Shown: positions 6,909-23,654 of the stretch, piece by piece
Position numbering within the stretch: the stretch's first letter is position 1
Layout of the letters: each line of letters opens with the position of its first letter
Virus record (IMG/VR): IMGVR_UViG_3300032288_005212
Span: 42,085-106,084 of that record
Strand: one strand, 5' to 3'
Source: an uncultured virus (IMG/VR IMGVR_UViG_3300032288_005212)
Taxonomy: Duplodnaviria; Heunggongvirae; Uroviricota; Caudoviricetes
DNA: 64,000 nucleotides
Position numbers and translations under genes: made by a program
The notes under the pieces: model-generated
What the model was told of the DNA's origin: nothing
The model's database searches: none
Seen by the model: only the letters and a program-made list of their open reading frames with translations

Positions 6909-6992
6909 TGGTACCGATGAGAAGACTCGAACTTCCACAACTTACGTCACTAGAACCTAAATCTAGCGTGTCTACCATTCCACCACATCGGC
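6909..6992 (-). tRNA. tRNA-Leu(TAG)
   Basis: GCCGATG/CATCGGT stem, CTAGA-TTTAGGT-TCTAG anticodon arm, long variable arm, CCA. Confidence 0.95.
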
Positions 6993-6997
6993 AAGTA

Positions 6998-7096: not shown

Positions 7097-7101
7097 GTAA
7101 T

Positions 7102-7761
7102 TTAACTTAACGAAGAATTAGTCAAATACTTATTTTGAATAGGAAATTTAAGTGGCTCAGCACTGAGTCTTTTAGCTATTACATAAATAGAACACTCAGA
7201 ACTTGCTTGAAACCTTGCTGTTGGATGCACTTCAGAAGAATTTGATCCATTAGTTACTATCATAAGCTCTATTTTCCAGTTATTTTGAGTGTACAAATCA
7301 TGGTAAAAAGTAGGCTGTATACAATAAAACCCATGATTTAACATCGTTAATGGGGGAGTATGAAAAATGACTCCACCAGGTTTAACAGCATTTGCTGCAT
7401 TAATCGTAGCCTGCCAAATATTGGCACAATGTTCAGTAGTACCACAGTCTAAAACTATATCGTACTTTCCAAAATCTTGGGGTTGATTTAGGTCAAAAAT
7501 TTCTTCTCTACCACGACTAGCTACAATATCAACATATCGTATTGTATTAATACCCAACTTCCTGAATACTTCGTCTGTCTCTGGCAATCTGTGGTGTCTT
7601 CCATGCCATCTACCAAAATCAGTTTCTGCAGTAGTTTGAAAGCCTGTAATAGTTTTAAGCTCATCCTGTGACATAACCATGTCTGGATATGACAAAGATA
7701 GCAATGAATCGCAGGGCATAAATTTTTTGATATTGCTAAGCCCTAATGCATTAATTCCCAT
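7102..7761 (-). CDS. Class I SAM-dependent methyltransferase-like protein
   Basis: YVDI, DLNQP, YDIVLDCGTTEH, AVKPGGVIFH motifs. Confidence 0.7.
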   Translation of the reverse strand: MGINALGLSNIKKFMPCDSLLSLSYPDMVMSQDELKTITGFQTTAETDFGRWHGRHHRLPETDEVFRKLGINTIRYVDIVASRGREEIFDLNQPQDFGKYDIVLDCGTTEHCANIWQATINAANAVKPGGVIFHTPPLTMLNHGFYCIQPTFYHDLYTQNNWKIELMIVTNGSNSSEVHPTARFQASSECSIYVIAKRLSAEPLKFPIQNKYLTNSSLS

Positions 7762-7777
7762 AATTATTACCTGTTTA

Positions 7778-7851
7778 TGGAGCCCACACTCGGAATCGAA
7801 CCAAGGATAGATGATTACAAATCAACTGTTATACCATTTAACTATGCGGGC
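7778..7851 (-). tRNA. tRNA-Thr(TGT)
   Basis: GCCCGCA/TGTGGGC stem, TT-TGT-AA loop, GGTTCGATTCC, CCA. Confidence 0.93.
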
Positions 7852-8025: not shown

Positions 8026-8412
8026 TCATAAATCACCTTTTGCACGATTTTCGCTACGAGCGACTTCAAATCCGTCAGGATAGCGAGCTTGTAGCTTTTC
8101 TACATTCATTTTTACGATCTCTTCAAGATTAACTGAAAGAGCGTTGGCAGCATTGGCGAGATACCAACATATATCTCCCAACTCACGTAGCATATGATAA
8201 TGAACGTCAGCATTATATTCTTTTCCTTGAAAAATAATTTTCTTTACAATTTCAGAGAATTCACCGCTCTCGCTAGCCAGTCCAACACTTGCCGTCAGCA
8301 AGAGTGGGACATTCACGTTCAGCGTAACAATGCGATCAATAAACTCACTCAGTCCTTTTGATTCCGCACTCGTTGTATACTTTACAAACTTCTGATATTC
8401 ATTTAAATCCAC
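8026..8412 (-). CDS. mazG: MazG-like nucleotide pyrophosphohydrolase
   Basis: GLASESGEFSEIVKK...ELGDICWY...N..KL.ARYPDGF. Confidence 0.9.
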   Translation of the reverse strand: MDLNEYQKFVKYTTSAESKGLSEFIDRIVTLNVNVPLLLTASVGLASESGEFSEIVKKIIFQGKEYNADVHYHMLRELGDICWYLANAANALSVNLEEIVKMNVEKLQARYPDGFEVARSENRAKGDL

Positions 8413-9023
8413 AGTTCAATTCCTTTTTCTTCCAAAGCGCGTTTACAGTCTTGAGCAACTTTCATATGCTCACGTTGAGTACCGTTTCCAGTACGAGTTT
8501 CAATATAATGCATCCAGGAACGTAGTGTTCCATTCATATAAATGCGCGAGAGTGTCATTCCTTCTGGAAGAACTGCTCGAGCCTGCTCTTTTGCAATTCC
8601 GTTGCTTAGCGCCCATTCATACATTTCACGAGCAACATCACTTACTTCTTTTTGGCGCTCTTCCCACTCAGTCACAAGGCTAGACATTCCATCAATTGGA
8701 AGACTATTTTGACGATTCTTCGTATCTTGAAGACGCGCTTCACGAGTAACAAACTCTTCTTTTACTTCCGCGTAACGCTGGCTAAACTCTTGAAAAGTAA
8801 AAGAGCGATGACGAAGAATTTGTCGAGCAATATCTCTCGTAGTTGTAATTTCAAGACAAGCATTTACCATCTCAAATGGAGAAAAATGTTTGTTTCGAAT
8901 CAAATATTTAATCAGTTGCGGAGCAGTAGTCATATTATACTGATTTGCAGGGTTTGATACCCTCGCACAGTATGCAACTGTTTCCATTGCTCCAGGTGTA
9001 ATCCATACTACTTTTACTGTCAT
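8403..9023 (-). CDS. thyX: FAD-dependent thymidylate synthase
   Basis: ARVS, HFSPFE, RQILRHRSFTFQEFSQRY (RHRx7S), EQAR.VLP. Confidence 0.96.
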   Translation of the reverse strand: MTVKVVWITPGAMETVAYCARVSNPANQYNMTTAPQLIKYLIRNKHFSPFEMVNACLEITTTRDIARQILRHRSFTFQEFSQRYAEVKEEFVTREARLQDTKNRQNSLPIDGMSSLVTEWEERQKEVSDVAREMYEWALSNGIAKEQARAVLPEGMTLSRIYMNGTLRSWMHYIETRTGNGTQREHMKVAQDCKRALEEKGIELWI

Positions 9024-10335: not shown

Positions 10336-10362
10336 AGGCCGCCTACGGGGCGGCCTTGTTCT
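10336..10362 (+). terminator. GC-rich hairpin after hsp20 (weak U-tract)
   Basis: AGGCCGCC-TACG-GGGCGGCCT followed by TGTTCTT. Confidence 0.6.
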
Positions 10363-10384: not shown

Positions 10385-10747
10385 ATGCTACTACCTATAA
10401 TTGGAGGAGTTGTTGAGCTAGGGAAAACCTGGCTAGAAGGTAAGAATACAAAAATAAAAGCAAAGGCTGAAGCCGAGGCTACAGTTCTTGTTAAATCAGC
10501 TGAAAGTGAGGCAAACTGGGAAACTATAATGGCCCAAAATAGTGCTTCTTCTTGGAAAGATGAGTGGATTACAATTCTTTTTAGCATTCCTATGATACTA
10601 TGTTTCTTTCCCAGCACTGTTCAATATGTTAGAGATGGTTTTGCCGCTCTTGAAGGTATGCCGGACTGGTATCAGTATACTCTTTCAATAATTGTTGCGG
10701 CTTCATTTGGCGTTCGTTCTGCAATAGGATTTATGAAGAAAAAATGA
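10385..10747 (+). CDS. Holin (3TM/GTA-holin-like)
   Basis: SSWKDEW, hydrophobic helices, P.WY, ASFG.R, basic C-terminus; upstream of lysozyme. Confidence 0.75.
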   Translation: MLLPIIGGVVELGKTWLEGKNTKIKAKAEAEATVLVKSAESEANWETIMAQNSASSWKDEWITILFSIPMILCFFPSTVQYVRDGFAALEGMPDWYQYTLSIIVAASFGVRSAIGFMKKK

Positions 10748-10875
10748 AAGAAGTAAGCCTGATAGTAGATTCTACATCAAGAAAGTGGCGTAAAAAGTTA
10801 AAAAAGATTAGAAAAACCAAACAACGGCGCTACGATAGGGAGCTAGTGAATGGATTATCAAAAATTAAAAGATGA
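10744..10875 (+). CDS. 43-aa highly cationic peptide (not in ORF track)
   Basis: ATGA overlap with the holin stop; MKEVSLIVDSTSRKWRKKLKKIRKTKQRRYDRELVNGLSKIKR. Confidence 0.55.
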   Translation: MKEVSLIVDSTSRKWRKKLKKIRKTKQRRYDRELVNGLSKIKR

Positions 10876-11293
10876 GTTATCAGTAGATGAAGGATATAGA
10901 AATGAAATATATCTAGATCATCTTGGGTACCCAACAATAGGTATTGGACATTTAATTTTAAAAAGCGATCCAGAATACGGAAAGCCCGTAGGTACTTTAG
11001 TAAGTGGAGAAAGAATAACTGAACTATTTATAGCTGATGTTGAAAATTCAATAAAAGACGCTAAAAAATTATTTTCAAACTTTGATACTTGTTCTGACGA
11101 CATCCAAAGAGTTTTAGTAAATATGATGTTTAATCTTGGGTATACAAGGTTTTCAAAATTTAAAAAATTTAAAGCCGCAATAGAAGCTAGGAATTGGAAG
11201 CAGGCAGCAATAGAAGGTGCCGATTCTTTATGGTATAAACAAGTGCCTAATAGAGCACGCAGATTAATGGAAAGATTAAAAAATGGAGTATAA
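10850..11293 (+). CDS. Endolysin, GH24/T4-lysozyme family
   Basis: DEG...Y.DHLGYPTIGIGHL (E-x8-D-x5-T), NMMFNLG, S.WYKQVPNRA.RL. Confidence 0.95.
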   Translation: MDYQKLKDELSVDEGYRNEIYLDHLGYPTIGIGHLILKSDPEYGKPVGTLVSGERITELFIADVENSIKDAKKLFSNFDTCSDDIQRVLVNMMFNLGYTRFSKFKKFKAAIEARNWKQAAIEGADSLWYKQVPNRARRLMERLKNGV

Positions 11294-11897
11294 AATACCC
11301 CACAAACACAGAAACAAAAAATTTGTTCTTTGTGCAACTGGACCTTCTCTTACCCCTGAAGTAGTAGAAACTATCAGAAAGTATAAAACTGAGGATCACG
11401 TTATTTTTGGAATAAATGACAGTTATCGAATAATTGATTTCCTAGATGAACACTATGCTTGTGATGAAAAATGGTGGAGCACTTGGGGTAAAGACTTTAG
11501 AGAAAAATATCCATATCTTTCTGCGTGGGCTTATGGAGATAACGCAGCAGAATATGGTGTAAAAGTTGTAAAAGGATTTCATAATCCAGGACTTAGTTTA
11601 CGTCAAGATAAACTTCATTATGGCTCAAATTCAGGATATCAAGCATTAAATATTGCATTTTTAATGGGGGGTAGAAAGTTCATCCTTGTTGGCTACAATA
11701 TGAGAAGAGTTGAGCATAAAAGCCACTTTTTCGGAGACCACGTAGGAATGAATAATACCAGCCCATACGACATATTTATAAAAAATTATAGCACAATACA
11801 AGGATCTATAAAAGAACTCATAGTAAACTGTACAGAAAACTCTGCTTTAAATTGTTTTAGAATGGGAAATTTGGAAGAGGAACTTCAGCGTGATTAA
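11283..11897 (+). CDS. DUF115/Maf-like putative glycosyltransferase
   Basis: ATGPSL, FGIND, ACD..WW, GSNSGYQALNIA, LVGYNM, HFFG, IVNCT. Confidence 0.55.
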   Translation: MEYKIPHKHRNKKFVLCATGPSLTPEVVETIRKYKTEDHVIFGINDSYRIIDFLDEHYACDEKWWSTWGKDFREKYPYLSAWAYGDNAAEYGVKVVKGFHNPGLSLRQDKLHYGSNSGYQALNIAFLMGGRKFILVGYNMRRVEHKSHFFGDHVGMNNTSPYDIFIKNYSTIQGSIKELIVNCTENSALNCFRMGNLEEELQRD

Positions 11898-12519
11898 AAT
11901 TTTTGTAGGCACTTCTCAGAATGGGGAGGATGCTTTAGCAGAAAAAACTTTAGAATACTCTTTAAGAAAACATAGTTCTGAAGAGCTGGAAGTTATATTT
12001 ATGCGAAATAATGACTCGTATATGGGCTATTTCAATAACTCCACCTGGGCCACTCCATTCACCAACCTTCGCTGGACAATCCCGGAGTATTGTGGATTTA
12101 CTGGACGAGCCATTTATATGGATGTGGATCAACTCAACCTTCGAGATATTTCAGAACTTTATCATATTGATCTTCAAGGAAAACCATTTGCCTCTAGAGA
12201 AGATAGATTATGTGTTATGGTCATTGACTGTGAAGCAATGCAGCCGTTGCTGCAGCCAGTACCAGTCATTAAAAATACTCCAAACTACGGTAATAGTATT
12301 TACTGGGATATTGTGAAAAAAAGCCATCATTTTGATCCTCGCTGGAACTGTCTCGATGGGGAGGATCGTCCTATTTCAGATATATGGCATCTTCATTTTA
12401 CCTCTATGCCAACACAGCCCTGGAAACCTGCTTGGTTTCGCGGAATGCCAAGACCACATTGGAGACAGGATTTAGTTGACCTATGGGAAAAATATAAAAT
12501 AGAAGCCCATGCACGATGA
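11890..12519 (+). CDS. GT8-like glycosyltransferase
   Basis: T.FT.LRW.IP..CGF.GRAIYMDVD (DxD), WNCLD, HFT.M.TQPW. Confidence 0.85.
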   Translation: MIKIFVGTSQNGEDALAEKTLEYSLRKHSSEELEVIFMRNNDSYMGYFNNSTWATPFTNLRWTIPEYCGFTGRAIYMDVDQLNLRDISELYHIDLQGKPFASREDRLCVMVIDCEAMQPLLQPVPVIKNTPNYGNSIYWDIVKKSHHFDPRWNCLDGEDRPISDIWHLHFTSMPTQPWKPAWFRGMPRPHWRQDLVDLWEKYKIEAHAR

Positions 12520-13193
12520 AAATTAGTATTCTTCTTACAACCCACAATAGAGAGCAAGAAGCAATTTATTGTATATCTAATCTGCTTGAACAAATAACCA
12601 ATCATATAGAAGTTATATTGTTAGACGATTATCATATTTATAATCCAAACTTAAATACTTTTTGCAATGAAAATTCTATACAGTATGTCCATACGGGTAT
12701 ACAAAAGAATGGACAATACTTATGGAGAATGCCTGGGTATGCTTTAAATATTGGGGCAAAACTTGCTGGTGCTGATTATTTAATCATAGGTAATTGTGAA
12801 ATATTACATACAGATAAAGATTGTATAAATAAAATGTATGAGTTTAAAGATTCTGTATCCAGCCCTATTGTTCTTCGACAAAAAGAAAAAGGTAACTTTG
12901 AGTCTTTTAATTTAATGCCTAATCGTTTTCCATTTTTTTGGGGGCTACCAAAACATATGTACATAGATATAGGCGGATTTGACGAAGATTTTACAGGAAC
13001 AGCTTTTGATGATGCGGATTTTTCTGATCGAATTTTAAGTATGTTAAAGTTTACTGAAATAGATTCAAAAGTTATACATTTGTGGAATCCTGATGTTGGT
13101 GGGGGCGATCGATGGGTGCATAATAAAAATCTTTATGAGACCCGCAAAGGGATTATAAAAAGAAATGTTGATAGAGAGTGGGGAGTTTTATGA
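12516..13193 (+). CDS. GT2/GT7-like glycosyltransferase
   Basis: ISILLTTHNR, EVILLDD, LNIG.K.A, IGGFDEDF.G...DD.DF..R, HLW. Confidence 0.85.
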   Translation: MKISILLTTHNREQEAIYCISNLLEQITNHIEVILLDDYHIYNPNLNTFCNENSIQYVHTGIQKNGQYLWRMPGYALNIGAKLAGADYLIIGNCEILHTDKDCINKMYEFKDSVSSPIVLRQKEKGNFESFNLMPNRFPFFWGLPKHMYIDIGGFDEDFTGTAFDDADFSDRILSMLKFTEIDSKVIHLWNPDVGGGDRWVHNKNLYETRKGIIKRNVDREWGVL

Positions 13194-13969
13194 AATTTAT
13201 ATGTTTCGCACAGTTAAGAAATGAGCTAGAGAATGGAAATTTAGAGTTGTGGCTTCAACAACAGACTTCTCTATGCGATAAGATTTATGTGTACGATCAA
13301 AACTCAACCGATGGAAGCAAAGATTTATATAAAAAATATAAAAATCTTGAAGTAATCTACTCAGATAAAAATGATTTTGGAAATGAGATAGTTTGTAAAC
13401 ACCAGTTACTTCAACTACTGCAGAAAAATGAAGGCTATGATAATATCATTTTTTGGATAGACGGCGATACTTTTATTGATACAACTTTTGATAGACAAAA
13501 TATAGAAAATATTTTTGCACAAACCGAATTAACACACTTACGCTTACGACACTATAATCTATGGAGAAGCGATACATTTTATAGAACAGATGGAAAATAT
13601 CATAACTTATATAGAAATGGAGTAGTTGCTTTATGGAAAAACTCTCCTGATTTAAGTTTTAATCCTCGTTCTGGACTTCATACACAAGTAGCCCCAGATA
13701 GGTTAAATAGTCAAAATAACCATGGATTAATTGAAACCTCACTGATTCATCGTGGGTTTGCAACTGATTTTCAAATAATTAAAAGATATAAAACATATAA
13801 AAGTTTTGGTCAAACCGGATATAGATTAGAAATGCTATTAGATGAACAAAATTTATCTGTTACACAACTTGATATAAATTTGGTCCCAACATTTATACCA
13901 AAAAATTTAGACAGCCCCATAGGTAAAGAGTTAATTTTAGAAAAATATAGGAGAGGGTGCTTAGAATGA
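13178..13969 (+). CDS. GT2-like glycosyltransferase
   Basis: RNE, YDQNSTDGS, WIDGD (DxD), GLH...P, LIH.G. Confidence 0.75.
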   Translation: MGSFMKFICFAQLRNELENGNLELWLQQQTSLCDKIYVYDQNSTDGSKDLYKKYKNLEVIYSDKNDFGNEIVCKHQLLQLLQKNEGYDNIIFWIDGDTFIDTTFDRQNIENIFAQTELTHLRLRHYNLWRSDTFYRTDGKYHNLYRNGVVALWKNSPDLSFNPRSGLHTQVAPDRLNSQNNHGLIETSLIHRGFATDFQIIKRYKTYKSFGQTGYRLEMLLDEQNLSVTQLDINLVPTFIPKNLDSPIGKELILEKYRRGCLE

Positions 13970-14544
13970 GCGATTTTTGGGAAAATAAACACAGACTAGA
14001 AGACTCGTATTGGCTAACTGGATCCGGTGTTGATACTTATTCTTTTTATCATAATATTAATTGGGAATTTTTTAAGGGTAAAAAAATACTAGAGATAGGT
14101 ATCGGTACTGGAAAATTTTTAAATCAGTGTAATAATAATTTTTTATTGTATGCTTCTGATATATCTACTATAGCTTTAAATAAAATAAACCATTTAGTAA
14201 TTAATTCTTATTTATCTAAAAATATAAAGCAGTGCCCAGAAGTAGATTTAGCAATTTGTCATTTAGTTTTTCAACATAACAATATATCAGAAGTAGAAAG
14301 AATAATAAATGATGTTAACTTAACTACAACTGGTATATTTAGCTTTCAATATGCTGAGTGTACAGATTTTAAATTAGCAAAAGAGAAAGATCCCAATATG
14401 GTACTAAATGAAACTCATTTTTTTCACTCTTACGAAGATATTGAAAATGCCATAAACAATAGCAATAAAAAATTATTACAACATCATGGTAGAGTTAAAG
14501 TTAGTACGGGTATACATTGGAATATTTGTAGAGTGTGCATATGA
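13957..14544 (+). CDS. Class I SAM-dependent methyltransferase
   Basis: ILEIGIGTG, SDIS, DLAICHLVFQH. Confidence 0.85.
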   Translation: MLRMSDFWENKHRLEDSYWLTGSGVDTYSFYHNINWEFFKGKKILEIGIGTGKFLNQCNNNFLLYASDISTIALNKINHLVINSYLSKNIKQCPEVDLAICHLVFQHNNISEVERIINDVNLTTTGIFSFQYAECTDFKLAKEKDPNMVLNETHFFHSYEDIENAINNSNKKLLQHHGRVKVSTGIHWNICRVCI

Positions 14545-15263
14545 AAAATATAGAAGTCATATCCCTAATCTTTAAGTCTGTAGACTATTTAGATTTTATT
14601 GTTAATCAATTAAAAACAAACTGTAAAGCCGAAGGATGGGACGTAGGAGTACGCATTGTAGCTAATGATGCCAATGAAAAAGTTTTACATAGATTAAAAG
14701 ATAGCGATATACCTTATTCTATTTATAATGATCCATATCCAGATCAATATTACTTAAATAGAGTTTATAGATGCTGGAATTTTGCCGGTAAAAGTTCCGA
14801 GTATGATAACATATGTTTTGTAAATTCCGATATGGCGTTTAGCACTAATTGGCTAACTAACTTGCTAAAATTTCATGATGGAAAAAATATACCTACTAGC
14901 AGATTGGTTGAAAGCGGAAAAATGTTAAGTGGTATGCACGGCATTAGCTATGACTGTGGCAAACACCCTAAAATCTTTGATGCATCAAAGTGGGAATCTT
15001 ATGCTGAAGAAATCAAAGAAAATACTTGCCACAACGGTGGACTTTATATGCCATGTATATTTGAAAAATCAAGGTTTATAGAGAGCGGAATGTACCCTGA
15101 GGGAAACATATACGTTGATGGGGTTGGAACCTGTAACGGTAGAAAAATTTGTAGTGGCGATAGATGGTTTTTTAATAATTTAGAACAAAACTTTGGGATG
15201 AAACATATTACTGTGTTTAATTCTTTAGTGTATCATATACAGGAAGGTGAAATGGATGATTAA
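14535..15263 (+). CDS. GT-A fold glycosyltransferase, paralog of 15841-16611
   Basis: WNFA, FVNSDMAF..NWL.NL, MP, GD..FF, VYH. Confidence 0.75.
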   Translation: MHMKNIEVISLIFKSVDYLDFIVNQLKTNCKAEGWDVGVRIVANDANEKVLHRLKDSDIPYSIYNDPYPDQYYLNRVYRCWNFAGKSSEYDNICFVNSDMAFSTNWLTNLLKFHDGKNIPTSRLVESGKMLSGMHGISYDCGKHPKIFDASKWESYAEEIKENTCHNGGLYMPCIFEKSRFIESGMYPEGNIYVDGVGTCNGRKICSGDRWFFNNLEQNFGMKHITVFNSLVYHIQEGEMDD

Positions 15264-15840
15264 GTCAAACTGGGATGGAAGCAAAACTTTATCAATAGAC
15301 GGAACCGGTAGTCTTGCATCTGTGGACTGTAAAGTCGCACAAAACCTACATAAATTTATAGTTGATAATATCATAACAGAAGGTGCTATAATAGACTTTG
15401 GAGCAGGCCAAGGTTATTTTCAAAAATACTTTGAAGAAAATACTAATTTTGATGTGTGGTCTATCGAAGGTTATTCTGGATTGGATTTTAAAGCAAATAA
15501 AGATAAGTGGTTGCTCAGTAATCTCGGGACAAAGTTGACTCAGGAATATCACAAAAAATTTGACTTAGTAGTTTCTTTTGAATGTATAGAGCACATCCAT
15601 AAAACAGAGCAAGAAGTATTTTGGGAAAATGTATTTTTATGCTCTAATAAAGCTTTAATAGGAATACATACAGAAAATGAGGAACATGACGCCCATTGCT
15701 TTATAAGAAACACTGATTGGTGGGTGAATTTTTTTGAATCAAAAGGCTATAAGTACAAAATTCTTGGGCATTCTAAAGATTATTGGCCAGTTTGGCCAGA
15801 AGCACAGTGTTCTTTATTTGCATACTTAGAGGTACAATAA
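15247..15840 (+). CDS. Class I SAM-dependent methyltransferase
   Basis: IIDFGAGQG, FDLVVSFECIEHI, H......WW...F. Confidence 0.85.
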   Translation: MKWMIKSNWDGSKTLSIDGTGSLASVDCKVAQNLHKFIVDNIITEGAIIDFGAGQGYFQKYFEENTNFDVWSIEGYSGLDFKANKDKWLLSNLGTKLTQEYHKKFDLVVSFECIEHIHKTEQEVFWENVFLCSNKALIGIHTENEEHDAHCFIRNTDWWVNFFESKGYKYKILGHSKDYWPVWPEAQCSLFAYLEVQ

Positions 15841-16611
15841 GTGAAAAAGGTAGCTTTATACTGTCAAGTCGGCTCTGCAATTGATATGTTAGATTTTAGC
15901 ATAAATAATGCTATAAAAAATTCTGGCCTATCGAAGGAAGATTATGATATAATTTTTATATGCTGGAAAACTTCTGCGGAAGTTTATAGCTGGTTACATA
16001 AAAACAGTCATCACTATGAAGAAATGGACTATGATGAAGGAAAGGGGTTTTTATGGAACCTGTACAAAGGCTGGAATTTTGGATATGAAGTTGGTTATAA
16101 GTATTCAGATACAGTGTGCCCTATAGCTACTGACCACGCTTTTTATACTAATTGGTTAGCAAATTTATTAAAGCATCGACAAAATAATAGAATAGTTAAT
16201 TGCAAGTTGATAGAACCAGGCACCTTACCTTCTTTACACACAACTAAAAATTTTGGATTAACTACTAATACCGATTTTAAAGAGGAAGAATTTTTAAAAT
16301 TTTGTTCTACGATAAGTCAAGATAAATTAATTTTTGAGGATAATCTAGAGCCTTATTGGAAAAATAGAGGTGTAGGTGGTTCATACGGACATAGGCTTGA
16401 TGCTATGCCATTTATATGTCCAAAAGATGTTTGGGAAAGATTTGGGCCAATGCTACAAACAAAAAATTCTCATAGCGTAACAGGAGATACGGATTTTTTT
16501 GATAGGTGCAAAGCGGGTGGCGTAGAGGTAACTAAATCTTTAGATGCAATTAGTTATCATTGCGGCGGTATAGAGACAAAAAGAAATATGTCTAATAATA
16601 TTTACACTTGA
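15841..16611 (+). CDS. GT-A fold glycosyltransferase, paralog of 14535-15263
   Basis: WNFG, TDHAFYTNWLANLL, MPF, GDTDFF, SYH. Confidence 0.7.
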   Translation: MKKVALYCQVGSAIDMLDFSINNAIKNSGLSKEDYDIIFICWKTSAEVYSWLHKNSHHYEEMDYDEGKGFLWNLYKGWNFGYEVGYKYSDTVCPIATDHAFYTNWLANLLKHRQNNRIVNCKLIEPGTLPSLHTTKNFGLTTNTDFKEEEFLKFCSTISQDKLIFEDNLEPYWKNRGVGGSYGHRLDAMPFICPKDVWERFGPMLQTKNSHSVTGDTDFFDRCKAGGVEVTKSLDAISYHCGGIETKRNMSNNIYT

Positions 16612-16618
16612 GGCTATT

Positions 16619-17416
16619 ATGATAAAAATAGGTATAATAGGTTTAGGCGTAATAGGTTCGGCGTGTAAGTACGGTTTTGAAAAGCTAGGGCATACAGTAT
16701 TAGTGCACGATATAAAACTCCAAACTAAATTGGAGGATTTAATTATCTGCGATATTATATATGTATGTGTTCCCACCCCCTCAGATTACTTGGGTAATTG
16801 CAATACGTCTATAGTGGAACAAGTAGTATATGCTTTAAAAAATTTAAATTACCAGAATATAGTTGCTATAAAATCTACGGTTAAACCAACTACAACACAG
16901 AAACTTATTGATGACACTAATTTATCTATTTGTTTTGTTCCAGAGTTTTTAAGAGAAAGATGCGCTATAGCCGATTTCACGGAAAACCACGACTTATTAG
17001 CAATTGGAACAGAAGATAACGATGTATTCAATAGAGTAAAAGAATGTCATGGATTTTTTCCAAGGAATATTATAAAGTTAACCCCAACAGAAGCAGAAAT
17101 ATTAAAGTACTACTCTAACACCTTTAATGCCTTAAAAGTTATTTTTGCTAATGAGATGTATGAAGTCTGTAAAAAAATAGGCGCTAACTACACAAAAGTT
17201 AAAGATACTTATATTTTACGAAATACTACTAAAGATATGTATTTAGATGTGAATGATAATTTTAGAGGCTACGCTGGAGTATGTCTACCAAAAGATACAA
17301 AAGCACTCAGTATGTTTATTAAGGATCTCGGCCTAGACTTAAAATTGTTTGAAACTTTAGAGCAAGAAAATGAGAAATTTAAAAAGACAGTGTTTGATGG
17401 TATGAGGCTAGAATGA
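16619..17416 (+). CDS. ugd: UDP-glucose/NDP-sugar 6-dehydrogenase (short form)
   Basis: GLGVIG, CVPTP, IKSTV.P, PEFLRE, AE..KY..N.F.A.KV.FANE, GYAGVCLPKD. Confidence 0.9.
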   Translation: MIKIGIIGLGVIGSACKYGFEKLGHTVLVHDIKLQTKLEDLIICDIIYVCVPTPSDYLGNCNTSIVEQVVYALKNLNYQNIVAIKSTVKPTTTQKLIDDTNLSICFVPEFLRERCAIADFTENHDLLAIGTEDNDVFNRVKECHGFFPRNIIKLTPTEAEILKYYSNTFNALKVIFANEMYEVCKKIGANYTKVKDTYILRNTTKDMYLDVNDNFRGYAGVCLPKDTKALSMFIKDLGLDLKLFETLEQENEKFKKTVFDGMRLE

Positions 17417-18441
17417 AAAAAGTTCTGTTAACTGGTAGTGAAGGATTTATTGGTTCTTATATATGTAATGAATTATTGGATTACAACTATGTTGTAGTTG
17501 GGGTTGATAACTATTCTAAATATGGAAAAATTATTAGGCCACATAATTCCCATAAAAACTTTAAATTATATAATGAAGATATACTGTCTAGCAATTTCCT
17601 AAAAATAGTTAACAATGAAAAACCGGATATTATTATAGCTGGGGCAGCTATGATAGGCGGAATTTCCTATTTTCATAAATATGCTTATGACCTGTTAGCT
17701 ACAAATGAAAGAATACTAGCACAAACTTTTGATGCCGCAATATGTGGGCATAAAGAAGGCTGGCTCGAAAGAATAATTGTTATGTCTAGTTCTATGGTTT
17801 TTGAAGAGACGTCAATTTATCCTACCCCAGAAACAGAAATAAAGAAATGTCCCCCGCCTTCCTCTACTTATGGGTTTCAGAAGCTGGCATCCGAATATTT
17901 TGCAAAAGGGGCGTTTGAGCAATACGGATTACCTTATACAATACTTAGGCCTTTTAATTGTGTTGGTATTGGAGAGGAAGATTCAATATCAGAACATGAG
18001 GTTACATCTGGTAATATTAAATTATTGATGTCGCACGTTCTCCCAGATTTAGTTAATAAAATATTAAAAAAACAGTACCCATTACACATATTAGGAGACG
18101 GAGGCCAGGTTAGGTGTTACACTAATGGTGTAGACCTAGCAAGAGGCGTTAGGCTCGCTATTGAGTCTGATAAAGCCATAAATAATGATTTTAATTTATC
18201 TACAGAAGTATCTACTAGCGTCCTAGAATTGGCGGAGTTAATTTGGGAATTGATTAATCCAGAAAAACCTTTTAAATATGTTTCTGACGCTGCTTTTGAT
18301 TATGATGTTCAAAAAAGAATTCCAGACGTAAGCAAGGCTAGAGATATTTTAAATTTTGAGGCTAAAGTTTCCTTGGAGGAATCCGTTATAGAAGTTATAA
18401 ATTATATGAGTAAGAAGCATGAAAGAAATACAGTTATGTAA
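17413..18441 (+). CDS. NAD-dependent NDP-sugar epimerase/dehydratase (extended SDR)
   Basis: TGSEGFIG, AAMIGGI, SSSMVF, YGFQK, RPFN..G, GDG.Q.R. Confidence 0.92.
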   Translation: MKKVLLTGSEGFIGSYICNELLDYNYVVVGVDNYSKYGKIIRPHNSHKNFKLYNEDILSSNFLKIVNNEKPDIIIAGAAMIGGISYFHKYAYDLLATNERILAQTFDAAICGHKEGWLERIIVMSSSMVFEETSIYPTPETEIKKCPPPSSTYGFQKLASEYFAKGAFEQYGLPYTILRPFNCVGIGEEDSISEHEVTSGNIKLLMSHVLPDLVNKILKKQYPLHILGDGGQVRCYTNGVDLARGVRLAIESDKAINNDFNLSTEVSTSVLELAELIWELINPEKPFKYVSDAAFDYDVQKRIPDVSKARDILNFEAKVSLEESVIEVINYMSKKHERNTVM

Positions 18442-19078
18442 ATCAAAAATAAACGCTATAGACCTATACAGTATATACTGTCAAGTTGATACAGAAGGTA
18501 AATGGGCAGACGGCTGGAATAAATTTTTGAATGCTAAATCAGGGGAATGGCACGGCCACTATAAACTTTTAGCTTATTTATCAACTTTTTTTAGCCCAGG
18601 AGACACTTTATTAGATATAGGAACATTAACAGGAGCGTCTAGTCTAGCGCTGTCTTTTAACGAAACTGTAAAAGTTTATTCTTTTGATCTTGCCAAGCAA
18701 ACTTTTCATTCAGGAAACCCTGGTGATAGTAGGTACATTTATGAATCAGATGAGCAAGTGTTAGCAAAAAATACAAGAGAAAATATTACCTATATTGTAG
18801 GAGATTGTCTACAACATGGTAAATTATTACTAAACTCATCTTTAATATACGTCGATATAGACCATAGCGGAGAAATAGAGGCCAATATTTTGAATTTCTT
18901 GCACAGTAATAATTGGAGAGGTATAGTAATATTAGATGATATTTATTGGACAACTATGCAACCTCTTTGGAGCAGTATTCCTGAAAAAATGAAACTAGAC
19001 ATTAGTATCTACGGCAATGGCAAGGACGGAACAGGGCTCATTAACTTTGGAAATATTTATTCGGTGACCTATGAATAA
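18419..19078 (+). CDS. Class I SAM-dependent methyltransferase
   Basis: HYKLLAYLS, LLDIGT..GAS, YVDIDH, GIVILDDI. Confidence 0.8.
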   Translation: MKEIQLCKSKINAIDLYSIYCQVDTEGKWADGWNKFLNAKSGEWHGHYKLLAYLSTFFSPGDTLLDIGTLTGASSLALSFNETVKVYSFDLAKQTFHSGNPGDSRYIYESDEQVLAKNTRENITYIVGDCLQHGKLLLNSSLIYVDIDHSGEIEANILNFLHSNNWRGIVILDDIYWTTMQPLWSSIPEKMKLDISIYGNGKDGTGLINFGNIYSVTYE

Positions 19079-19427
19079 TATAAGCTATCTAATAGAACAA
19101 ATAATATTAAATTCTATACAAGAATATGACGGTACTTACGACTCTGACAATTCTTTTAAAGAACTAGTTTCGATAGGCGAATTGGTAGATAGATTGTCCA
19201 TAGTAAATTTTAAACTTTATAAATTAAAAGATGAAGTAATGATGAGACCAGAGGATACGAACTTTAAAGCGTGGGCGTCCACAGAAGATGTAAAATTAGT
19301 TATTGAAAGGTCAAGACTAAAAAAGTGCATAGATGAGAAATTAATTTTTATGATACACAAAATTTATAATAATGATTTTTTGGCAGGCTTTAACTCCGAA
19401 GTTAAAAAATACGGTAATCAAATATGA
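19071..19427 (+). CDS. Small helical protein of glycan gene clusters (DUF4254/DUF6165-like)
   Basis: SIGELVDRLSI...KL, ERS.LK..ID, EVK.YG. Confidence 0.5.
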   Translation: MNNISYLIEQIILNSIQEYDGTYDSDNSFKELVSIGELVDRLSIVNFKLYKLKDEVMMRPEDTNFKAWASTEDVKLVIERSRLKKCIDEKLIFMIHKIYNNDFLAGFNSEVKKYGNQI

Positions 19428-20449
19428 AGTGCTTAGTTATATTGGGGACTAGACCCGAAGCAATAAGGTTATACCATACTATAAAAGAACTTAATCCTTA
19501 CAAAATATTTTGGACAGGCCAAAATTTTTCCAAGAATTTAAGTACAGATATTATTCAAGATCCTAGATTTGATAATATTTATAAAGATATGGTATTGTCT
19601 TCTATAGAAGAAACAGATTTTTTTCAACAATTTACAAAAATGTTGTTAAATATCGATAGTTTTATAAAACAATGTAGCCCAGACAAAATTTTAATTCTAG
19701 GAGATACTAACTCTAGTTTAGCCGCTGCTTTAGCTGCTAAAAAGAATGATATTCCGTTATACCATATGGAAGCTGGGAATAGATGTTATAACCCCAAATC
19801 TCCGGAAGAGATTAATAGGAGAATGATAGATAGTATCGCTGACGTACATTTATGCTATACTAAATTCGCTAAACAAAACTTATTAAATGAAGGTGTGCCG
19901 CTAAATAAAATTCATGTAATTGGTAACCCAATGGCCGAGTTTCCAGAACTCCATTCATATGATACAAAAGAAAAAAGTCAGGTACTGGTTACTTTACATA
20001 GAAAAGAGAATGAAGAGTATTTACCGAATTTACTTAATTTTTTTAATAGTTTAAATTCTAAAGTCAAAGTTAAATTAGTATTACATCCAAGATATTATAA
20101 ATTTTTTACTGAAAAATTTACCGATGTGGTTCCAAGCGTAAACTTTTCTGATTTTGTAAAGTTACAGCAAGAGTCGAGCTTAATAATAACAGATTCTGGT
20201 ACCGTATGTGAAGAAGCCGCTATTCTTAAAAAACCTTGCCTAATAATAAGAGAAACAACAGAGAGACCAGAACTTTTAGAGTTAGGTAGCACAATTTTGG
20301 GGGATATAAAAAACACAGATAATCTATTAAGCAGCTCAGACGCTTTATTAAATTTAACACGAGACTGGGACTTACCAGATGAGTACAAGTATCAAAAAGT
20401 TTCTAAGAAAGTAAAAACTATTCTATTAAGTAAGCAAAACTATATATGA
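19424..20449 (+). CDS. Non-hydrolysing UDP-HexNAc 2-epimerase (WecB/FnlC/WbvD-like)
   Basis: GTRPEAI, TGQN, LGDTNS, HMEAGNR, PEEINR, TLHR.EN, TDSGTV.EE, TERPE. Confidence 0.93.
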   Translation: MKCLVILGTRPEAIRLYHTIKELNPYKIFWTGQNFSKNLSTDIIQDPRFDNIYKDMVLSSIEETDFFQQFTKMLLNIDSFIKQCSPDKILILGDTNSSLAAALAAKKNDIPLYHMEAGNRCYNPKSPEEINRRMIDSIADVHLCYTKFAKQNLLNEGVPLNKIHVIGNPMAEFPELHSYDTKEKSQVLVTLHRKENEEYLPNLLNFFNSLNSKVKVKLVLHPRYYKFFTEKFTDVVPSVNFSDFVKLQQESSLIITDSGTVCEEAAILKKPCLIIRETTERPELLELGSTILGDIKNTDNLLSSSDALLNLTRDWDLPDEYKYQKVSKKVKTILLSKQNYI

Positions 20450-21165
20450 TAAATTTACAAAAGTTAAGCCTAGAAGAACTTAGAGATAGTTTTACAACCT
20501 CTTACCCATTTAATTATTTGGTTCTGGATAATTTTCTTGAGGAGAAAATAGCGGACAGCATATTAAACGATTTAAATACTGATGACTATTCGACTTGGGA
20601 TAAGAGAGCCGATGCTGGAGTACAAGTAAAAGATCGTTCCAATTGGAAGAATGATGCGGATGTGCCGCAGTCTACAAGAAATTTAATTCAGTACTTAAAC
20701 TCAGGAGATTTTTTACGGTGGCTATCAGAAGCCACAGGCATTCAAGGAATTATTCCAGACCCGTATCTTACCGGAGGAGGGTTTAATAAAATTAATAGGG
20801 GCGGCACTCTTGCTATACACGCTGACGGTAATTGGCATGATTTGATGGCAGTACACCGCAGGCTTAATTTAATTATATACCTAAATAAAAATTGGTTGCC
20901 AGAATGGGGCGGCAATCTTGAGCTATGGTCTAATAAAGATAGTAGGCCAGATAAATGTGAAAAAGAAATTGAGCCTTATTTTAATAGGCTGGTATTATTT
21001 AAAACTGATGATTACAGTTTTCATGGCCACCCAAAGCAACTAAACTGCCCAGAAAATGTTTCAAGAAAATCTTTGATATTGTATTATTATACAAGCACCA
21101 GACCCAGTACAGAAGTTGAGTCTTTAGAGAATAAGCACAGAGCTATATTTCATAAATCCGTATAA
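20446..21165 (+). CDS. 2OG-Fe(II) oxygenase, prolyl-4-hydroxylase-like
   Basis: PF..LV.DNFL, GGG, HAD, RRLN..IYLN..W..EWGG.LELW, P.FNR.V.F, HGHP, RKS....YY. Confidence 0.9.
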   Translation: MINLQKLSLEELRDSFTTSYPFNYLVLDNFLEEKIADSILNDLNTDDYSTWDKRADAGVQVKDRSNWKNDADVPQSTRNLIQYLNSGDFLRWLSEATGIQGIIPDPYLTGGGFNKINRGGTLAIHADGNWHDLMAVHRRLNLIIYLNKNWLPEWGGNLELWSNKDSRPDKCEKEIEPYFNRLVLFKTDDYSFHGHPKQLNCPENVSRKSLILYYYTSTRPSTEVESLENKHRAIFHKSV

Positions 21166-21176
21166 GAGGAAAAATA

Positions 21177-22157
21177 ATGTTTAATAATTCTACTGTATTA
21201 ATAACTGGCGGCACTGGTTCTTGGGGTCAAACACTAACCACAAAATTAATTGAACTATATAGCCCTAAAAAAATTATTATATTTTCTAGGGGAGAATTAC
21301 AACAAGTATTAATGCAAAGAAAGTTTAATAATCCTATTATCCAATATATAATAGGAGACGTAAGAGACTATGAAGCTATAAAATTTGCTACACTTGGCGT
21401 AGATTATGTTTTTCACCTGGCTGCATTGAAACACGTTCCAATATGTGAAAATCAACCACAAGAAGCTATAAAAACTAATATAACAGGCACTACAAATGTT
21501 ATCAATGCAGCAATACTTAATAAAGTAAAAAAAGTAATAGATGTATCTACAGATAAAGCAGTAGACCCTATTAATTTATATGGTATGACAAAGGCTGTAG
21601 GAGAAAAAGCAATAATTCAAGCAAACGACCTCAGCTCGCATACAAAATTTGTATGCGTGCGCGGAGGAAACGTAATGGGATCAAACGGTAGTGTGATTCC
21701 ATTTTTCATAGAGCAGATTAAATCTGGCGGACCAATTACTATCACAGACTCCAATATGACTAGATTTTTCTTAACTTTAAATGAAGCTATTGGATTATTA
21801 TTTAAAGCAGCAGAAGATAGCATTGGAGGAGAAACATTTGTTATGAAAATGCCTTCTTGCTACATAGAAGATATCGCGTCTATCCTAATGCAAAAATACG
21901 GTATAGTGCCTATAAAGGATATCGGTATGAGGCCAGGGGAAAAGCTAGATGAAGTACTAATCTCAAAAAATGAGGCTAATCTATCTTACTGCTATGATGA
22001 TAATTACTATGTTATTCTACCAAATGTTTATAATAATTTGTTAAATGAGAAGTATTCTAACTTAGAAGTATTCCCTTACGAAGAATTTTCGTCAAGCACA
22101 TTTATCATGAACGACGAAGAAATCTCTTCTATGTTGTCTAAGGGAGGATTCCTGTGA
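21177..22157 (+). CDS. UDP-GlcNAc 4,6-dehydratase/5-epimerase (PseB/FnlA/CapE-like)
   Basis: TGGTGSWG, FSR.E..Q, GDVRD, HLAALKHVP, STDKA, YGMTK, R.GNV.GS.GSVIP, MTRF, G.RPGEKL.E. Confidence 0.93.
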   Translation: MFNNSTVLITGGTGSWGQTLTTKLIELYSPKKIIIFSRGELQQVLMQRKFNNPIIQYIIGDVRDYEAIKFATLGVDYVFHLAALKHVPICENQPQEAIKTNITGTTNVINAAILNKVKKVIDVSTDKAVDPINLYGMTKAVGEKAIIQANDLSSHTKFVCVRGGNVMGSNGSVIPFFIEQIKSGGPITITDSNMTRFFLTLNEAIGLLFKAAEDSIGGETFVMKMPSCYIEDIASILMQKYGIVPIKDIGMRPGEKLDEVLISKNEANLSYCYDDNYYVILPNVYNNLLNEKYSNLEVFPYEEFSSSTFIMNDEEISSMLSKGGFL

Positions 22158-22933
22158 GCATTTTAGTGTTGGGCGGGGAAGGTATGGCAGGTTGGATGAT
22201 CGGAAATTTCCTGTCTAGAAAACACTCTGTATTAGTAACTACACGAGCAGATTTTGATGTTGAGAAAAGTTTAAAGCTTCCTGCAGGGTTTGATTACATA
22301 GTAAATTGTATAGGACTACTTTTGAACGACTCTAAAATTAACCCTGCAAAAACAATGTATGTTAATTCCTATTTTCCAAAATACCTGGAAAGGTTCTATA
22401 GAGATAGCAATACTAAAATAATACATTTATCTACAGATTGTGTATTTAACGGTACCAAAGGAAATTATCTAGAAACAGATTTGCCAAATGAGCTTGGAGT
22501 ATATGGTTTGTCGAAGTCTCTAGGTGAGATAGATAATAATAAAGATTTAACTCTAAGGGTTAGCATTATAGGCCCAGAGATAAGGCATCCAAGCAAAAGA
22601 AGCGGGCTTTTAAATTGGATACTTACTACAAAAGAAACACAACTAAACGGCTGGGTAAATGCACATTGGAATGGGATTACAACTTTAGAATTAGCTAAGT
22701 GTATAGACCAGTTTATAAAAAACCCAATAATTAGTGGAATATATCACCCAACTAATGAAACTATAACTAAGTACGAATTGCTAAATAAAATAAATTATAA
22801 ATATAATTTGGGAAAAGTTATAGTAAAATCTAATGCAGAAAAAAATATTGATAAAACTTTGCGGAATACAAAAGGATTTTTTAACGTATCATCTTATGAT
22901 ACACAGTTGGAAGAATTAAGAGCGTATATATGA
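22154..22933 (+). CDS. RmlD-like NDP-4-keto-6-deoxyhexose reductase (WbvR-like)
   Basis: LG..GM.G, NCIG, HLSTDCVF.G..G.Y.E, YG.SK..GE, R.SIIG.E, W.G.TTLELA; no C-terminal cupin. Confidence 0.88.
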   Translation: MSILVLGGEGMAGWMIGNFLSRKHSVLVTTRADFDVEKSLKLPAGFDYIVNCIGLLLNDSKINPAKTMYVNSYFPKYLERFYRDSNTKIIHLSTDCVFNGTKGNYLETDLPNELGVYGLSKSLGEIDNNKDLTLRVSIIGPEIRHPSKRSGLLNWILTTKETQLNGWVNAHWNGITTLELAKCIDQFIKNPIISGIYHPTNETITKYELLNKINYKYNLGKVIVKSNAEKNIDKTLRNTKGFFNVSSYDTQLEELRAYI

Positions 22934-23613
22934 AAAAACTATGTACTGTTTGCGATAGCGTGTATTTTAATGAACACGCAATAAAATTAATTAATTCTGT
23001 GGAGAACTTACAAGCGACGTCTTTGATAGCTATAGTCGTTAATCCTAATTTGGATGATATAGCTACGATGAAAAAAATAAATTCATCTGCTAAAAATACG
23101 GTATGTAATTATGTTGTAGATAGTAGAGATACAAAAACTTTTTTTGCTTCTGCTAGATACATTTATTCTGCTGATATTGTAAGAGAGTACGAGTTAGAGG
23201 GTATTATGTTCCTAGACTCAGATTCTTTAGTTCTAAAAGAAGTAGAGTACCCTAGTACAGACTTTGGGCTATTTTTAAGAGAACCATTTCCGAATACGAC
23301 CGGAGTAGTAAAAGAAGGATCCTATGTACTTGGATCCAGCGTTTATATATCAAAAACTGGGATAGAGTTTGCGGAATATCTTCGGCAAGAGTTAAACTCT
23401 TATACTCTTGATACCTGGTATCTAGATCAGGTTGCATTATGGAGAGGGTATCAACTTTATAAAGATAAATTAAGTTTTACACAGTTAGATAAAAGTTACT
23501 TAGATTGGGATTTTGATGTAAACAGTACGATATGGAACGCAAAAGGCCCTAGAAAATATAGTGATAAAAATTACATACTAAAATCCAGACAATTTCATAA
23601 TTCTCCTTTCTGA
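22930..23613 (+). CDS. Nucleotide-diphospho-sugar transferase (GT-A)
   Basis: CDSVYF, FFASARY, FLDSDS (DxD), WYLDQVAL, W.AKG.RK. Confidence 0.7.
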   Translation: MKKLCTVCDSVYFNEHAIKLINSVENLQATSLIAIVVNPNLDDIATMKKINSSAKNTVCNYVVDSRDTKTFFASARYIYSADIVREYELEGIMFLDSDSLVLKEVEYPSTDFGLFLREPFPNTTGVVKEGSYVLGSSVYISKTGIEFAEYLRQELNSYTLDTWYLDQVALWRGYQLYKDKLSFTQLDKSYLDWDFDVNSTIWNAKGPRKYSDKNYILKSRQFHNSPF

Positions 23614-23625: not shown

Positions 23626-23654
23626 TTGACATATTTTGCTTAACCGTATATAAT
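23626..23654 (+). promoter_or_regulatory. Sigma70 consensus promoter
   Basis: TTGACA-17 nt-TATAAT with upstream A-tract. Confidence 0.9.

Follow-up and report, generated by a model that had tools for sequence, protein, structure and literature searches.

The subject of this analysis is a block of glycan-synthesis genes in a 64,000-nucleotide stretch of DNA (the window), which makes up the final 64 kb of a 106,084-bp record of an uncultured tailed virus (IMG/VR IMGVR_UViG_3300032288_005212, positions 42,085 to 106,084; CheckV completeness rating of 100%). An earlier note made from the letters alone, here called the original prediction, had placed such a block after the lysis cassette at 11283-23613, and our analysis of open reading frames (ORFs), protein families, and composition confirms it. 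Within this block, hereafter the island, 17 packed, co-directional ORFs on the + strand (g01 to g17) occupy window positions 11283-23613, rather than the 16 counted originally, from which a 118-aa ORF at 19071-19427 had been omitted. Overlaps of 4-23 nt are found at 13 of the 16 junctions, while the other three are gaps of 0, 7, and 11 nt. As had been noted, the first gene starts inside the endolysin gene (the g01 start falls 11 nt within the lysozyme gene, 10850-11293), and a promoter follows the last stop, lying between g17 and the following gene. The island encodes seven glycosyltransferase (GT)-like proteins (g01, g02, g03, g04, g06, g08, and g17, in agreement with the roughly seven expected), three S-adenosylmethionine (SAM) methyltransferase (MT)-like proteins, a dehydratase/reductase/2-epimerase trio, a 2-oxoglutarate (2OG) oxygenase, a short-chain dehydrogenase/reductase (SDR), a truncated Ugd-like protein, and one small protein. 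The features of the locus, in window coordinates, are the following:

10336..10356, + strand: terminator-like hairpin, 3' of the Hsp20 gene and 5' of the lysis/glycan unit, with a 9-pair stem (7 GC pairs)
10385..10747, + strand: holin-like small membrane protein (phrog_2524) with one hydrophobic segment (Kyte-Doolittle value of 1.87)
10850..11293, + strand: phage lysozyme (endolysin; PF00959, 3.4e-9; matches to endolysin and tail-lysozyme PHROGs), its 3' end overlapping g01 by 11 nt
11283..11897, + strand: g01, stand-alone Maf-type (DUF115/MptE-like, sialyltransferase-like) catalytic domain of 204 aa (phrog_4603, 1.9e-28)
11890..12519, + strand: g02, GT8-like retaining GT-A glycosyltransferase with a DxD motif (PF01501, 27.2 bits; cut-off 24.3)
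12516..13193, + strand: g03, GT2 glycosyltransferase (PF00535, 29.3 bits, and PF10111, 32 bits, both above cut-off)
13178..13969, + strand: g04, GT2_4-type glycosyltransferase (PF13704, 33.3 bits; cut-off 27.5)
13957..14544, + strand: g05, class I SAM methyltransferase-like protein (PF13649, 18.7 bits, under the cut-off of 27; glycine-rich motif in the translation)
14535..15263, + strand: g06, GT-A glycosyltransferase, GT2-like and belonging to a viral family (its Atlas structure matches GT2 clusters at TM 0.91)
15247..15840, + strand: g07, SAM methyltransferase (PF13489, 36.7 bits; cut-off 27)
15841..16611, + strand: g08, paralogue of g06 and presumed GT2-like glycosyltransferase (BLASTP against g06: 29% over 133 aa, E 3e-12)
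16619..17416, + strand: g09, truncated UDP-glucose/GDP-mannose dehydrogenase-like protein (PF03721 and PF00984, without the C-terminal domain)
17413..18441, + strand: g10, SDR-type NAD-dependent epimerase/dehydratase (PF01370, 4.1e-34; best GalE score 88.8 bits, far under the cut-off of 262)
18419..19078, + strand: g11, Methyltransf_24-like O-methyltransferase (PF13578, 21.1 bits, under the cut-off of 26.3), of a family that recurs in sister islands
19071..19427, + strand: g12, small helical protein of 118 aa and of a viral family (PF14063, DUF4254, 19.3 bits, under cut-off; nearest Atlas clusters viral)
19424..20449, + strand: g13, non-hydrolysing UDP-HexNAc 2-epimerase of the WecB/FnlC/Mg536 type (PF02350, 4e-67, 227 bits; TIGR00236, 190.8 bits, cut-off 210)
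20446..21165, + strand: g14, 2OG-Fe(II) oxygenase of the prolyl-hydroxylase/Tpa1/OGFOD1 type (PF13640, 1.9e-16, 61.2 bits; cut-off 27)
21177..22157, + strand: g15, inverting UDP-GlcNAc 4,6-dehydratase of the PseB/FnlA/CapE/Mg534 type (PF02719, 4.5e-96, 321.9 bits)
22154..22933, + strand: g16, RmlD-like C4 reductase of 259 aa without a cupin domain (PF04321, 3.3e-18, 66.2 bits; PDB 2ggs, 1.1e-17), overlapping the g15 stop
22930..23613, + strand: g17, retaining GT-A glycosyltransferase with a GT8/GT24-like fold (model pLDDT 94.9)
23626..23654, + strand: sigma-70 consensus promoter of the next gene (a phrog_624 DNA-binding protein), TTGACA-17-TATAAT with 12/12 matches, at the 3' edge of the insertion site

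The structural model of g01 (pLDDT 92) aligns to Maf (motility accessory factor) of Magnetospirillum, a flagellin nonulosonic-acid O-glycosyltransferase (PDB 5mu5), over 187 residues, with a VIA-align Z of 16.0 and an rmsd of 3.4 A (next match, 11.7). Foldseek also matches the model to Maf (E of 4.9e-5, TM of 0.64), and the sialyltransferases CstI and CstII come next among GTs. The superposition covers the catalytic domain, including the same sialyltransferase-like nucleotide-binding start, but it is confined to residues 261-513 of the 632-residue Maf chain, such that the flanking N- and C-terminal domains have no counterpart in g01. Further differences are that no flagellin gene adjoins g01 and that its score against PF01973 (MptE-like; 24.9 bits) lies under the Pfam cut-off of 34.6; a g01 homologue in locus L133 scores 38.6 bits. 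We regard g01 as a candidate priming transferase within the conserved core of the island.

In g02, residues D78 and D80 are invariant across 31 sequences, and the profile matches GlyE (PDB 5gvv) with an E of 1.1e-3. The g02 family comprises at least 1225 metagenome clusters at E<=1e-10 and 113 viral loci, and a search of 50,697 phage genome records returned one weak, partial match only. The g17 profile gives 0 matches to PDB sequences; its model matches the UGGT catalytic domain, glycogenin, LARGE1, and GlyE (E of 1e-9 to 5e-8), and D96 and D98 are invariant. Profile-profile comparison of g02 with g17 yields a probability of 0.2 and thus no sequence evidence that the two are paralogues, with GT8-like features being found in both. 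Among the remaining GT-like proteins, g03 obtains generic GT2 matches only against PDB sequences, the g04 profile obtains 0 there, and a homologue of g06 (54% identical) is found in the jumbo-phage locus L022.

The SDR (g10), the dehydratase/reductase/2-epimerase trio (g15, g16, and g13), and the 2OG oxygenase (g14) all match the families originally named for them. In NCBIfam, g15 scores 343.6 bits with the PseB model and 269 bits with the FnlA model, both under the equivalog cut-offs, and its PDB matches include WbjB/FnlA (2.3e-74) and CapE (3.2e-68). It is closer to bacterial PseB/FlaA1 (2gn4, 1.2e-79) than to 4tqg (1.5e-48), which we take to be Mg534. The dehydratase, reductase, and 2-epimerase types of the UDP-2-acetamido-2,6-dideoxy-L-hexose pathway (FnlABC/CapEFG, WbvBRD, Mg534-536) are therefore all present, and the domain make-up of the trio points to the pathways that lead to these nucleotide sugars from host UDP-GlcNAc. 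The product sugars would probably be of the L-RhaNAc/L-QuiNAc type, which is favoured because the g16 reductase is short, RmlD-like, and cupin-free. For g14, the PDB matches are OGFOD1 (8e-6) and P4H (1.2e-4), the translation contains H-A-D and distal H motifs, and the 486 homologues carry the JGI name 'Tpa1-like proline 4-hydroxylase'.

Two other parts of the expected inventory stand in modified form. Only g07 among the three methyltransferase-like proteins clears its Pfam cut-off, with g05 and g11 falling below. The Ugd-like protein, g09, has the expected PF03721 and PF00984 domains and the catalytic Cys-x-x-Lys-Asp motif in its translation, but it aligns to residues 93-315 of a 444-aa UGDH and ends there, and thus, the UDP-binding C-terminal domain is missing. 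The absence of transmembrane segments and of export machinery is upheld: none of the 17 island proteins has a membrane segment (highest 19-residue Kyte-Doolittle mean <1.4), a Pfam scan of the same proteins finds no initiating phosphoglycosyl transferase, Wzx/Wzy, or ABC transporter, and a hydropathy scan of 160 genome ORFs finds no polytopic flippase, polymerase, or phosphoglycosyl transferase.

The island occupies a site of variable content. A scan of IMG/VR with the downstream gene identifies 47 loci with the same backbone. Among all loci retrieved in the analysis, both flanks are present on 45 distinct contigs (49 rows, including 4 repeats). These contigs have 60-8744 nt between the lysis/Hsp20 genes and the downstream gene, versus 12.4 kb here. 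The search of related contigs that the original prediction had suggested finds g01 and g02 together at the 5' end of the island site in 9/45 contigs, while the other 36/45 lack the pair there. The promoter at the 3' edge is kept in 7/7 aligned relatives, whether an island is present or not. With this promoter conserved and the gap variable, the island is best described as cargo lying between the lysozyme stop and the promoter, consisting of a conserved core and exchangeable cassettes.

The four sister islands that we annotated differ in their downstream genes. In the closest relatives (flank gene 88% identical), g01 (77%) and g02 (91%) are kept, and everything downstream is swapped. Their island (L032:2475-9943) encodes GT2, GT29-like, and MT_24 proteins, three unknowns, a nucleotidyltransferase, one more unknown, a DHQ-synthase-like protein, and an SDR, which would amount to a different, unusual sugar pathway at the same site. 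The sets differ again in more distant relatives: one sister island combines a pyruvyl-transferase-like gene with an additional Maf-like gene and a 2OG oxygenase that is 30% identical; a minimal one is made up of g01, g02, an FkbM methyltransferase, and a g17-like gene; and further sister islands carry GT25, FkbM, and MT_24 genes. In this phage, g02 and g17 bracket 14 variable genes. The g01/g02 pair is the conserved core at the site, g17 joins it in some relatives, and the genes between are exchanged as cassettes. Because 2/4 annotated sister islands lack g14, we consider the oxygenase to be accessory. For the same reason, a role for g14 in making an essential acceptor site was rejected (it is missing from the L032 and L099 islands).

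A chimeric host insert, which the original prediction had named as a finding that would speak against it, is not borne out. Independent assemblies contain both island junctions, another contig of 90.8 kb has a g14 that is 95% identical, and the best cellular homologues of g15 (Patescibacteria, Clostridia, Paenibacillus) are 54-64% identical versus up to 72% in viral contigs, which together make such an insert unlikely. The scan of cellular genomes with g15 gave no clue to a donor or host. A megablast search of the island plus the upstream 11 kb found no match in the 50,697 phage records, and tblastn of g15 against the same set returned 71 records, with none being T5-like among the 30 matches listed; the top matches are unannotated 'Staphylococcus' and 'Listeria' phage records that we suspect to be host DNA. 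These searches are in line with the earlier statement that such a locus is absent from T5. The island is nevertheless not confined to this phage, as aquatic T5-like relatives have sister islands at the same site.

Modules of the island are also found in other phages. The g15 and g16 genes occur together in 25/27 viral loci, including contigs of 188-208 kb, with g15 being 53-72% identical across viral loci and a g13-type 2-epimerase present in 8/27. One contig of 197 kb has a comparable 11-kb island with a Maf-like gene, g06 (54%), g14 (58%), and the same 2OG oxygenase-dehydratase-reductase order. A g17-like gene accompanies g02 in 55 of the 91 locus rows and is directly 3' of g02 where coordinates were inspected. 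On the two non-T5 contigs that we annotated for this pair (L102:9268-14107 and L114:9285-13505; contigs of ~50-157 kb), g02/g17 is flanked by Bax1-I, PF05159 (KpsS/KpsC-type), speD, and an outer-membrane protein (OMP) beta-barrel. The context of the g01 family was annotated in 7 of 8 non-T5 IMG/VR loci, with members 30-39% identical, and in 7/7, the gene lies in or beside the head module (terminase, portal, protease, major head or adaptor), with a methyltransferase nearby in 3/7. In Pseudomonas phage phi_D3, a g01-family gene has the major head gene on one side and the head-tail adaptor gene on the other, and in P1, the family member is pmgO, whose block opens with an annotated late promoter and includes pmgQ, an annotated glycosyltransferase.

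In composition, the island has a GC content of 0.328 versus 0.391 for the rest of the window, and its codon use differs from that of the replication genes in TTA among Leu codons (0.48 vs 0.09), ATA among Ile codons (0.55 vs 0.19), and AGA among Arg codons (0.60 vs 0.30). The low GC content and TTA/ATA/AGA bias that had been described are thus confirmed, but the signature begins already at the lysozyme gene rather than at 12.5 kb, and g02 is exceptional with a GC content of 0.40. The same codon signature is common to the island, the lysozyme gene, and the tail and fibre genes and is absent from the replication and head genes. Eight tRNA genes (window 6793-7851 and 32208-35444) include tRNA-Leu(UAA), tRNA-Arg(UCU), and one tRNA with a CAU anticodon. 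The signature would fit joint late use of the island and the tail genes or, equally well, a gene pool that is shared and horizontally mobile.

The backbone of the genome is that of a distant T5-like siphovirus. Its DNA polymerase shares 43% identity with the enzymes of Demerecviridae-type phages (Aeromonas, Providencia, Salmonella, Escherichia), PHROG matches include an NAD-dependent ligase, a DnaB-like helicase, an SbcC-like nuclease, and ribonucleotide reductase, and lambda/T5-type tail structural genes lie on the strand opposite to the island. From this backbone, the host looks Gram-negative. A permuted (two-piece) tmRNA gene is found in the tRNA region (window 33420-33719, + strand; Rfam RF04321, 93.7 bits, gathering score 47) and is likewise called by ARAGORN, with a tag peptide ending in -LAA. 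Permuted tmRNAs are found in Alphaproteobacteria, some Betaproteobacteria, and cyanobacteria, and this gene may be a hint at the host. Other features of the window include ThyX (flavin-dependent thymidylate synthase) and a MazG-like pyrophosphatase side by side (8026-9023, - strand), an S-adenosylmethionine decarboxylase (speD-like) gene in the early region (34160-34531, + strand), of a family that is also near g02/g17 on the unrelated contigs L102 and L114, and a second lysin-like ORF among large tail/fibre genes (59911-60330, - strand; phrog_938 endolysin, 5e-21), which may encode a virion-associated lysin.

The original prediction had taken the linkage to lysis genes as a sign of late expression, an argument that we find weak. 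We infer from position that the holin-like protein (91% identical in the closest relatives) is the holin, and its gene would be the first of the unit if the unit begins after the terminator. No convincing promoter was found for the lysis/glycan unit, so no promoter dates the transcript, and the island is on the same strand as the replication genes and directly upstream of them.

Taken together, we interpret the island as a phage-borne, wholly cytoplasmic glycan-assembly system at a recombination hot spot of an aquatic T5-like lineage. The acceptor may be the phage's own virion protein or proteins, to which we assign a probability of roughly 0.45. Virion glycosylation is the best-supported reading because of the Maf fold of g01, the head-module context of its family, the phi_D3 and P1 pmgO genes, the likeness of g02 and g17 to GT8/GT24 enzymes of which some are protein-directed, and a precedent in giant viruses. 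Thus, where virion proteins or DNA had originally been proposed as acceptors, the former gain from the context and fold of g01, while the latter is disfavoured, as discussed below. Under virion glycosylation, g15, g16, and g13 would convert host UDP-GlcNAc to 6-deoxy-L-HexNAc nucleotide sugars, g01 would prime the acceptor (the donor perhaps being a CMP-ulosonic acid made by the host), an inner core of sugars in retaining linkage would be built by g02 and g17, and the cassette enzymes would add and O-methylate outer sugars, with g14 possibly hydroxylating the acceptor or a sugar. Virion proteins would in this way be glycosylated in the cytoplasm ahead of lysis, giving particles whose methylated glycan coat would vary between strains.

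Two proteins are candidate acceptors. The major tail (tube) protein (genome 15102-16304, - strand) has a Ser/Pro-rich low-complexity loop at about residues 121-160, which is a possible O-glycosylation site; its 404-aa homologue in an island-bearing 91.8-kb relative (G001) has a different, non-Ser/Pro sequence at the loop (n=1). The other is a 1597-aa fibre-like protein encoded among the tail/fibre genes (window 48141-52934, - strand), which contains ~25 tandem 23-residue repeats rich in Asn, Thr, Arg, and Leu with one Pro each and has only short PHROG matches of unknown function.

The giant-virus precedent is Megavirus chilensis, in which Mg534-Mg536 make UDP-L-RhaNAc/UDP-L-QuiNAc for fibril glycans that include 3-O-methyl forms, matching the presence of methyltransferases here (PMC4691112). 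The two systems share the same three enzyme types (inverting dehydratase, reductase, and 2-epimerase), clustered with glycosyltransferases in a viral genome, but one belongs to a giant virus of amoebae and the other to a tailed phage in which the product sugar and the acceptor are predicted. In mycobacteriophages, phage-encoded soluble glycosyltransferases decorate the phage's own particle, as we propose here, with glycans placed at the C-termini of capsid and tail-tube subunits (Freeman et al. 2023, as cited in PMC12619734). The present system differs in comprising 17 genes, including predicted rare-sugar synthesis, and in its position next to lysis and replication genes, in a T5-like phage with a Gram-negative-looking host.

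Several observations weigh against virion proteins as the acceptor. Both the glycan and its acceptor are predicted from genes, and the context argument draws on g01 relatives that are just 26-39% identical. In this phage, g01 itself is outside the structural module, and the island GT genes are neither in nor next to that module, being placed between the lysozyme and replication genes, upstream of and co-directional with the latter. Compared to Maf, g01 lacks the flanking domains (204 aa vs a 632-residue chain), and there is no CMP-nonulosonate pathway, as PF03102 and PF02348 have no match in the 106-kb genome. The resemblance of g02/g17 to GT8/GT24 enzymes includes protein-directed ones (UGGT, glycogenin, GlyE), but likeness in GT8 fold does not tell protein-directed from LPS-directed enzymes, and the neighbours of g02/g17 elsewhere (KpsS/KpsC-type, Bax1-I, OMP beta-barrel) look envelope-directed. 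Moreover, g02 is 40-91% identical across phages with unrelated backbones, which suggests a shared acceptor (sugar, lipid, or DNA) rather than one virion protein, an objection that falls away if g02 acts second, on a sugar. The codon signature would be explained equally well by horizontal origin or a shared mobile gene pool, and it is missing from the head genes, which are also virion genes. Finally, the truncation of g09 suggests that part of the island may be decaying.

Remodelling of the host envelope is a rather unlikely alternative, in which host lipid-linked intermediates (Und-PP O-units, lipid A-core, or a phosphatidylglycerol-Kdo primer) would serve the soluble enzymes as the base for a product exported by host flippases or ABC transporters, and the altered cell surface might block superinfection or keep progeny off debris. 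The gene families of the island are typical of LPS/capsule loci, the JGI name for the g02 family is 'lipopolysaccharide biosynthesis glycosyltransferase', sister islands include GT25, polysaccharide pyruvyl transferase, and FkbM/RfbT-like methyltransferases, g02/g17 adjoin PF05159, Bax1-I, and an OMP beta-barrel in non-T5 phages, and the conservation of g02 across unrelated phages fits a common host acceptor. Such a reading has been proposed for comparable clusters in the cyanomyoviruses P-SSM2, S-SCSM1, and S-SCSM2R, whose GT/nucleotide-sugar genes are described as 'cell-wall synthesis and modification' genes and resemble the island in that virulent aquatic phages carry soluble GTs and NDP-sugar epimerases in large numbers (PMC12801897). 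Those phages are T4-like myoviruses, whereas the island belongs to a T5-like siphovirus with a defined hot spot and a conserved g01/g02 core. Bacterial O-antigen and capsule loci likewise combine nucleotide-sugar genes, several GTs, and modifying enzymes and undergo cassette replacement between conserved flanks, but the island lacks their initiating transferase, Wzx/Wzy, ABC transporter, ligase, and membrane segments. By Pfam for the island and hydropathy for the genome, no initiating phosphoglycosyl transferase, flippase, polymerase, ligase, or ABC-transporter component is found. These absences agree with the original argument against host O-antigen conversion, but host intermediates would be usable by soluble GTs and g02/g17 occur beside a KpsS/KpsC-type gene, and so the argument holds in part. 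Also unfavourable to envelope remodelling are the placement of the g01 family in head modules elsewhere and the backbone, which is that of a virulent T5-like phage. T5 has a short infection time, and the same would be expected of such a phage.

Hypermodification of DNA, in which the GTs would decorate a hydroxylated base with an oligosaccharide and so protect it from restriction, is highly improbable. Known phage clusters of this kind (T-even glucosylation; arabinosyl-5hoC in RB69/DLP3; MT/5mYOX/GT clusters) resemble the island in having GTs, some of them GT-A/GT8-like, and sometimes sugar-nucleotide genes near replication genes, and GT-A enzymes, including GT8-like secondary transferases, glycosylate 5hmC there (bioRxiv 10.1101/2023.12.21.572611). 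The island also adjoins replication genes, g14 is a 2OG oxygenase, and cassette diversity fits a restriction arms race. A short (204 aa) C5-cytosine methylase-like ORF is found at window 46402-47016 (+ strand), between the large and small ribonucleotide reductase subunits, but it matches only the N-terminal third of PF00145 and is 23 kb away from the island. In the known routes, the hydroxyl acceptor depends on a ThyA homologue or a TET/JBP dioxygenase (PMC13326640; bioRxiv 10.1101/2023.12.21.572611), and neither is found in this genome: PF12851 (TET/JBP) and PF00303 (ThyA) have no match at E<=1 across its whole length, and the thymidylate synthase is ThyX (PF02511). It is this lack that makes DNA a disfavoured acceptor. 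Furthermore, g14 matches prolyl-hydroxylase-type enzymes rather than 5-methylpyrimidine dioxygenases and is missing from half of the annotated sister islands, and the DNA glycans described in the sources consulted reach three sugars (among them PMC13326640) versus the seven GTs and three MTs here.

We also judge it improbable that the system acts on another cytoplasmic acceptor, whether a small molecule or a host protein such as flagellin or pilin (whose modification would mask a receptor), or that it is partly decayed cargo without a present function. Maf-type enzymes act on flagellin, and a solved Maf is the top fold match of g01, but g01 lacks the flagellin-binding domains. In keeping with decay, g09 lacks a domain and the island is unlike the backbone in composition; against it, the 17 ORFs are intact, with overlapping stops and starts and no frameshift, which argues for selection, and core genes are conserved at up to 91%, as is g14 at 95% on the 90.8-kb contig.

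Glycan clusters of phages and giant viruses are already known. What is new here is the T5-like setting, with a defined hot spot at which a g01/g02 core is combined with swappable cassettes, the association of g02 with g17, which bracket the island in this phage and stand side by side in others, and what appears to be a de novo 6-deoxy-L-HexNAc pathway in a siphovirus. Our literature search on phage DUF115, capsid/Yuavirus sialyltransferases, and freshwater T5-like glycosyltransferases found nothing on such an island. More tentatively, and with some doubt, the locus could be viewed as a 'virion serotype' locus, a viral counterpart of the O-antigen locus, in which g01 and g02, joined in some relatives by g17, would attach a glycan to virion proteins, swappable cassettes would set the outer sugars, and in this phage g14 together with the Ser/Pro-rich loop of the tail tube would add hydroxyproline- or serine-linked glycans. 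Close relatives would then differ in their sugar coat, with methylated 6-deoxy-L-HexNAc here and the product of a DHQ-synthase/nucleotidyltransferase pathway in the closest relatives.

The g01 and g02 families are abundant, uncharacterised phage enzymes for which the island suggests concrete roles, and with the g15/g16/g13 trio, rare 6-deoxy-L-HexNAc nucleotide sugars would be available from a phage. Should the particle prove to carry the glycan, the range of virion glycosylation would widen from the mycobacteriophages in which it is documented (PMC12619734) to a widespread aquatic T5-like lineage. A phage sugar coat would in that case diversify by cassette exchange, as bacterial surface antigens do, which would matter for how phages adsorb, how they withstand proteases and grazers, and how host defences recognise them.

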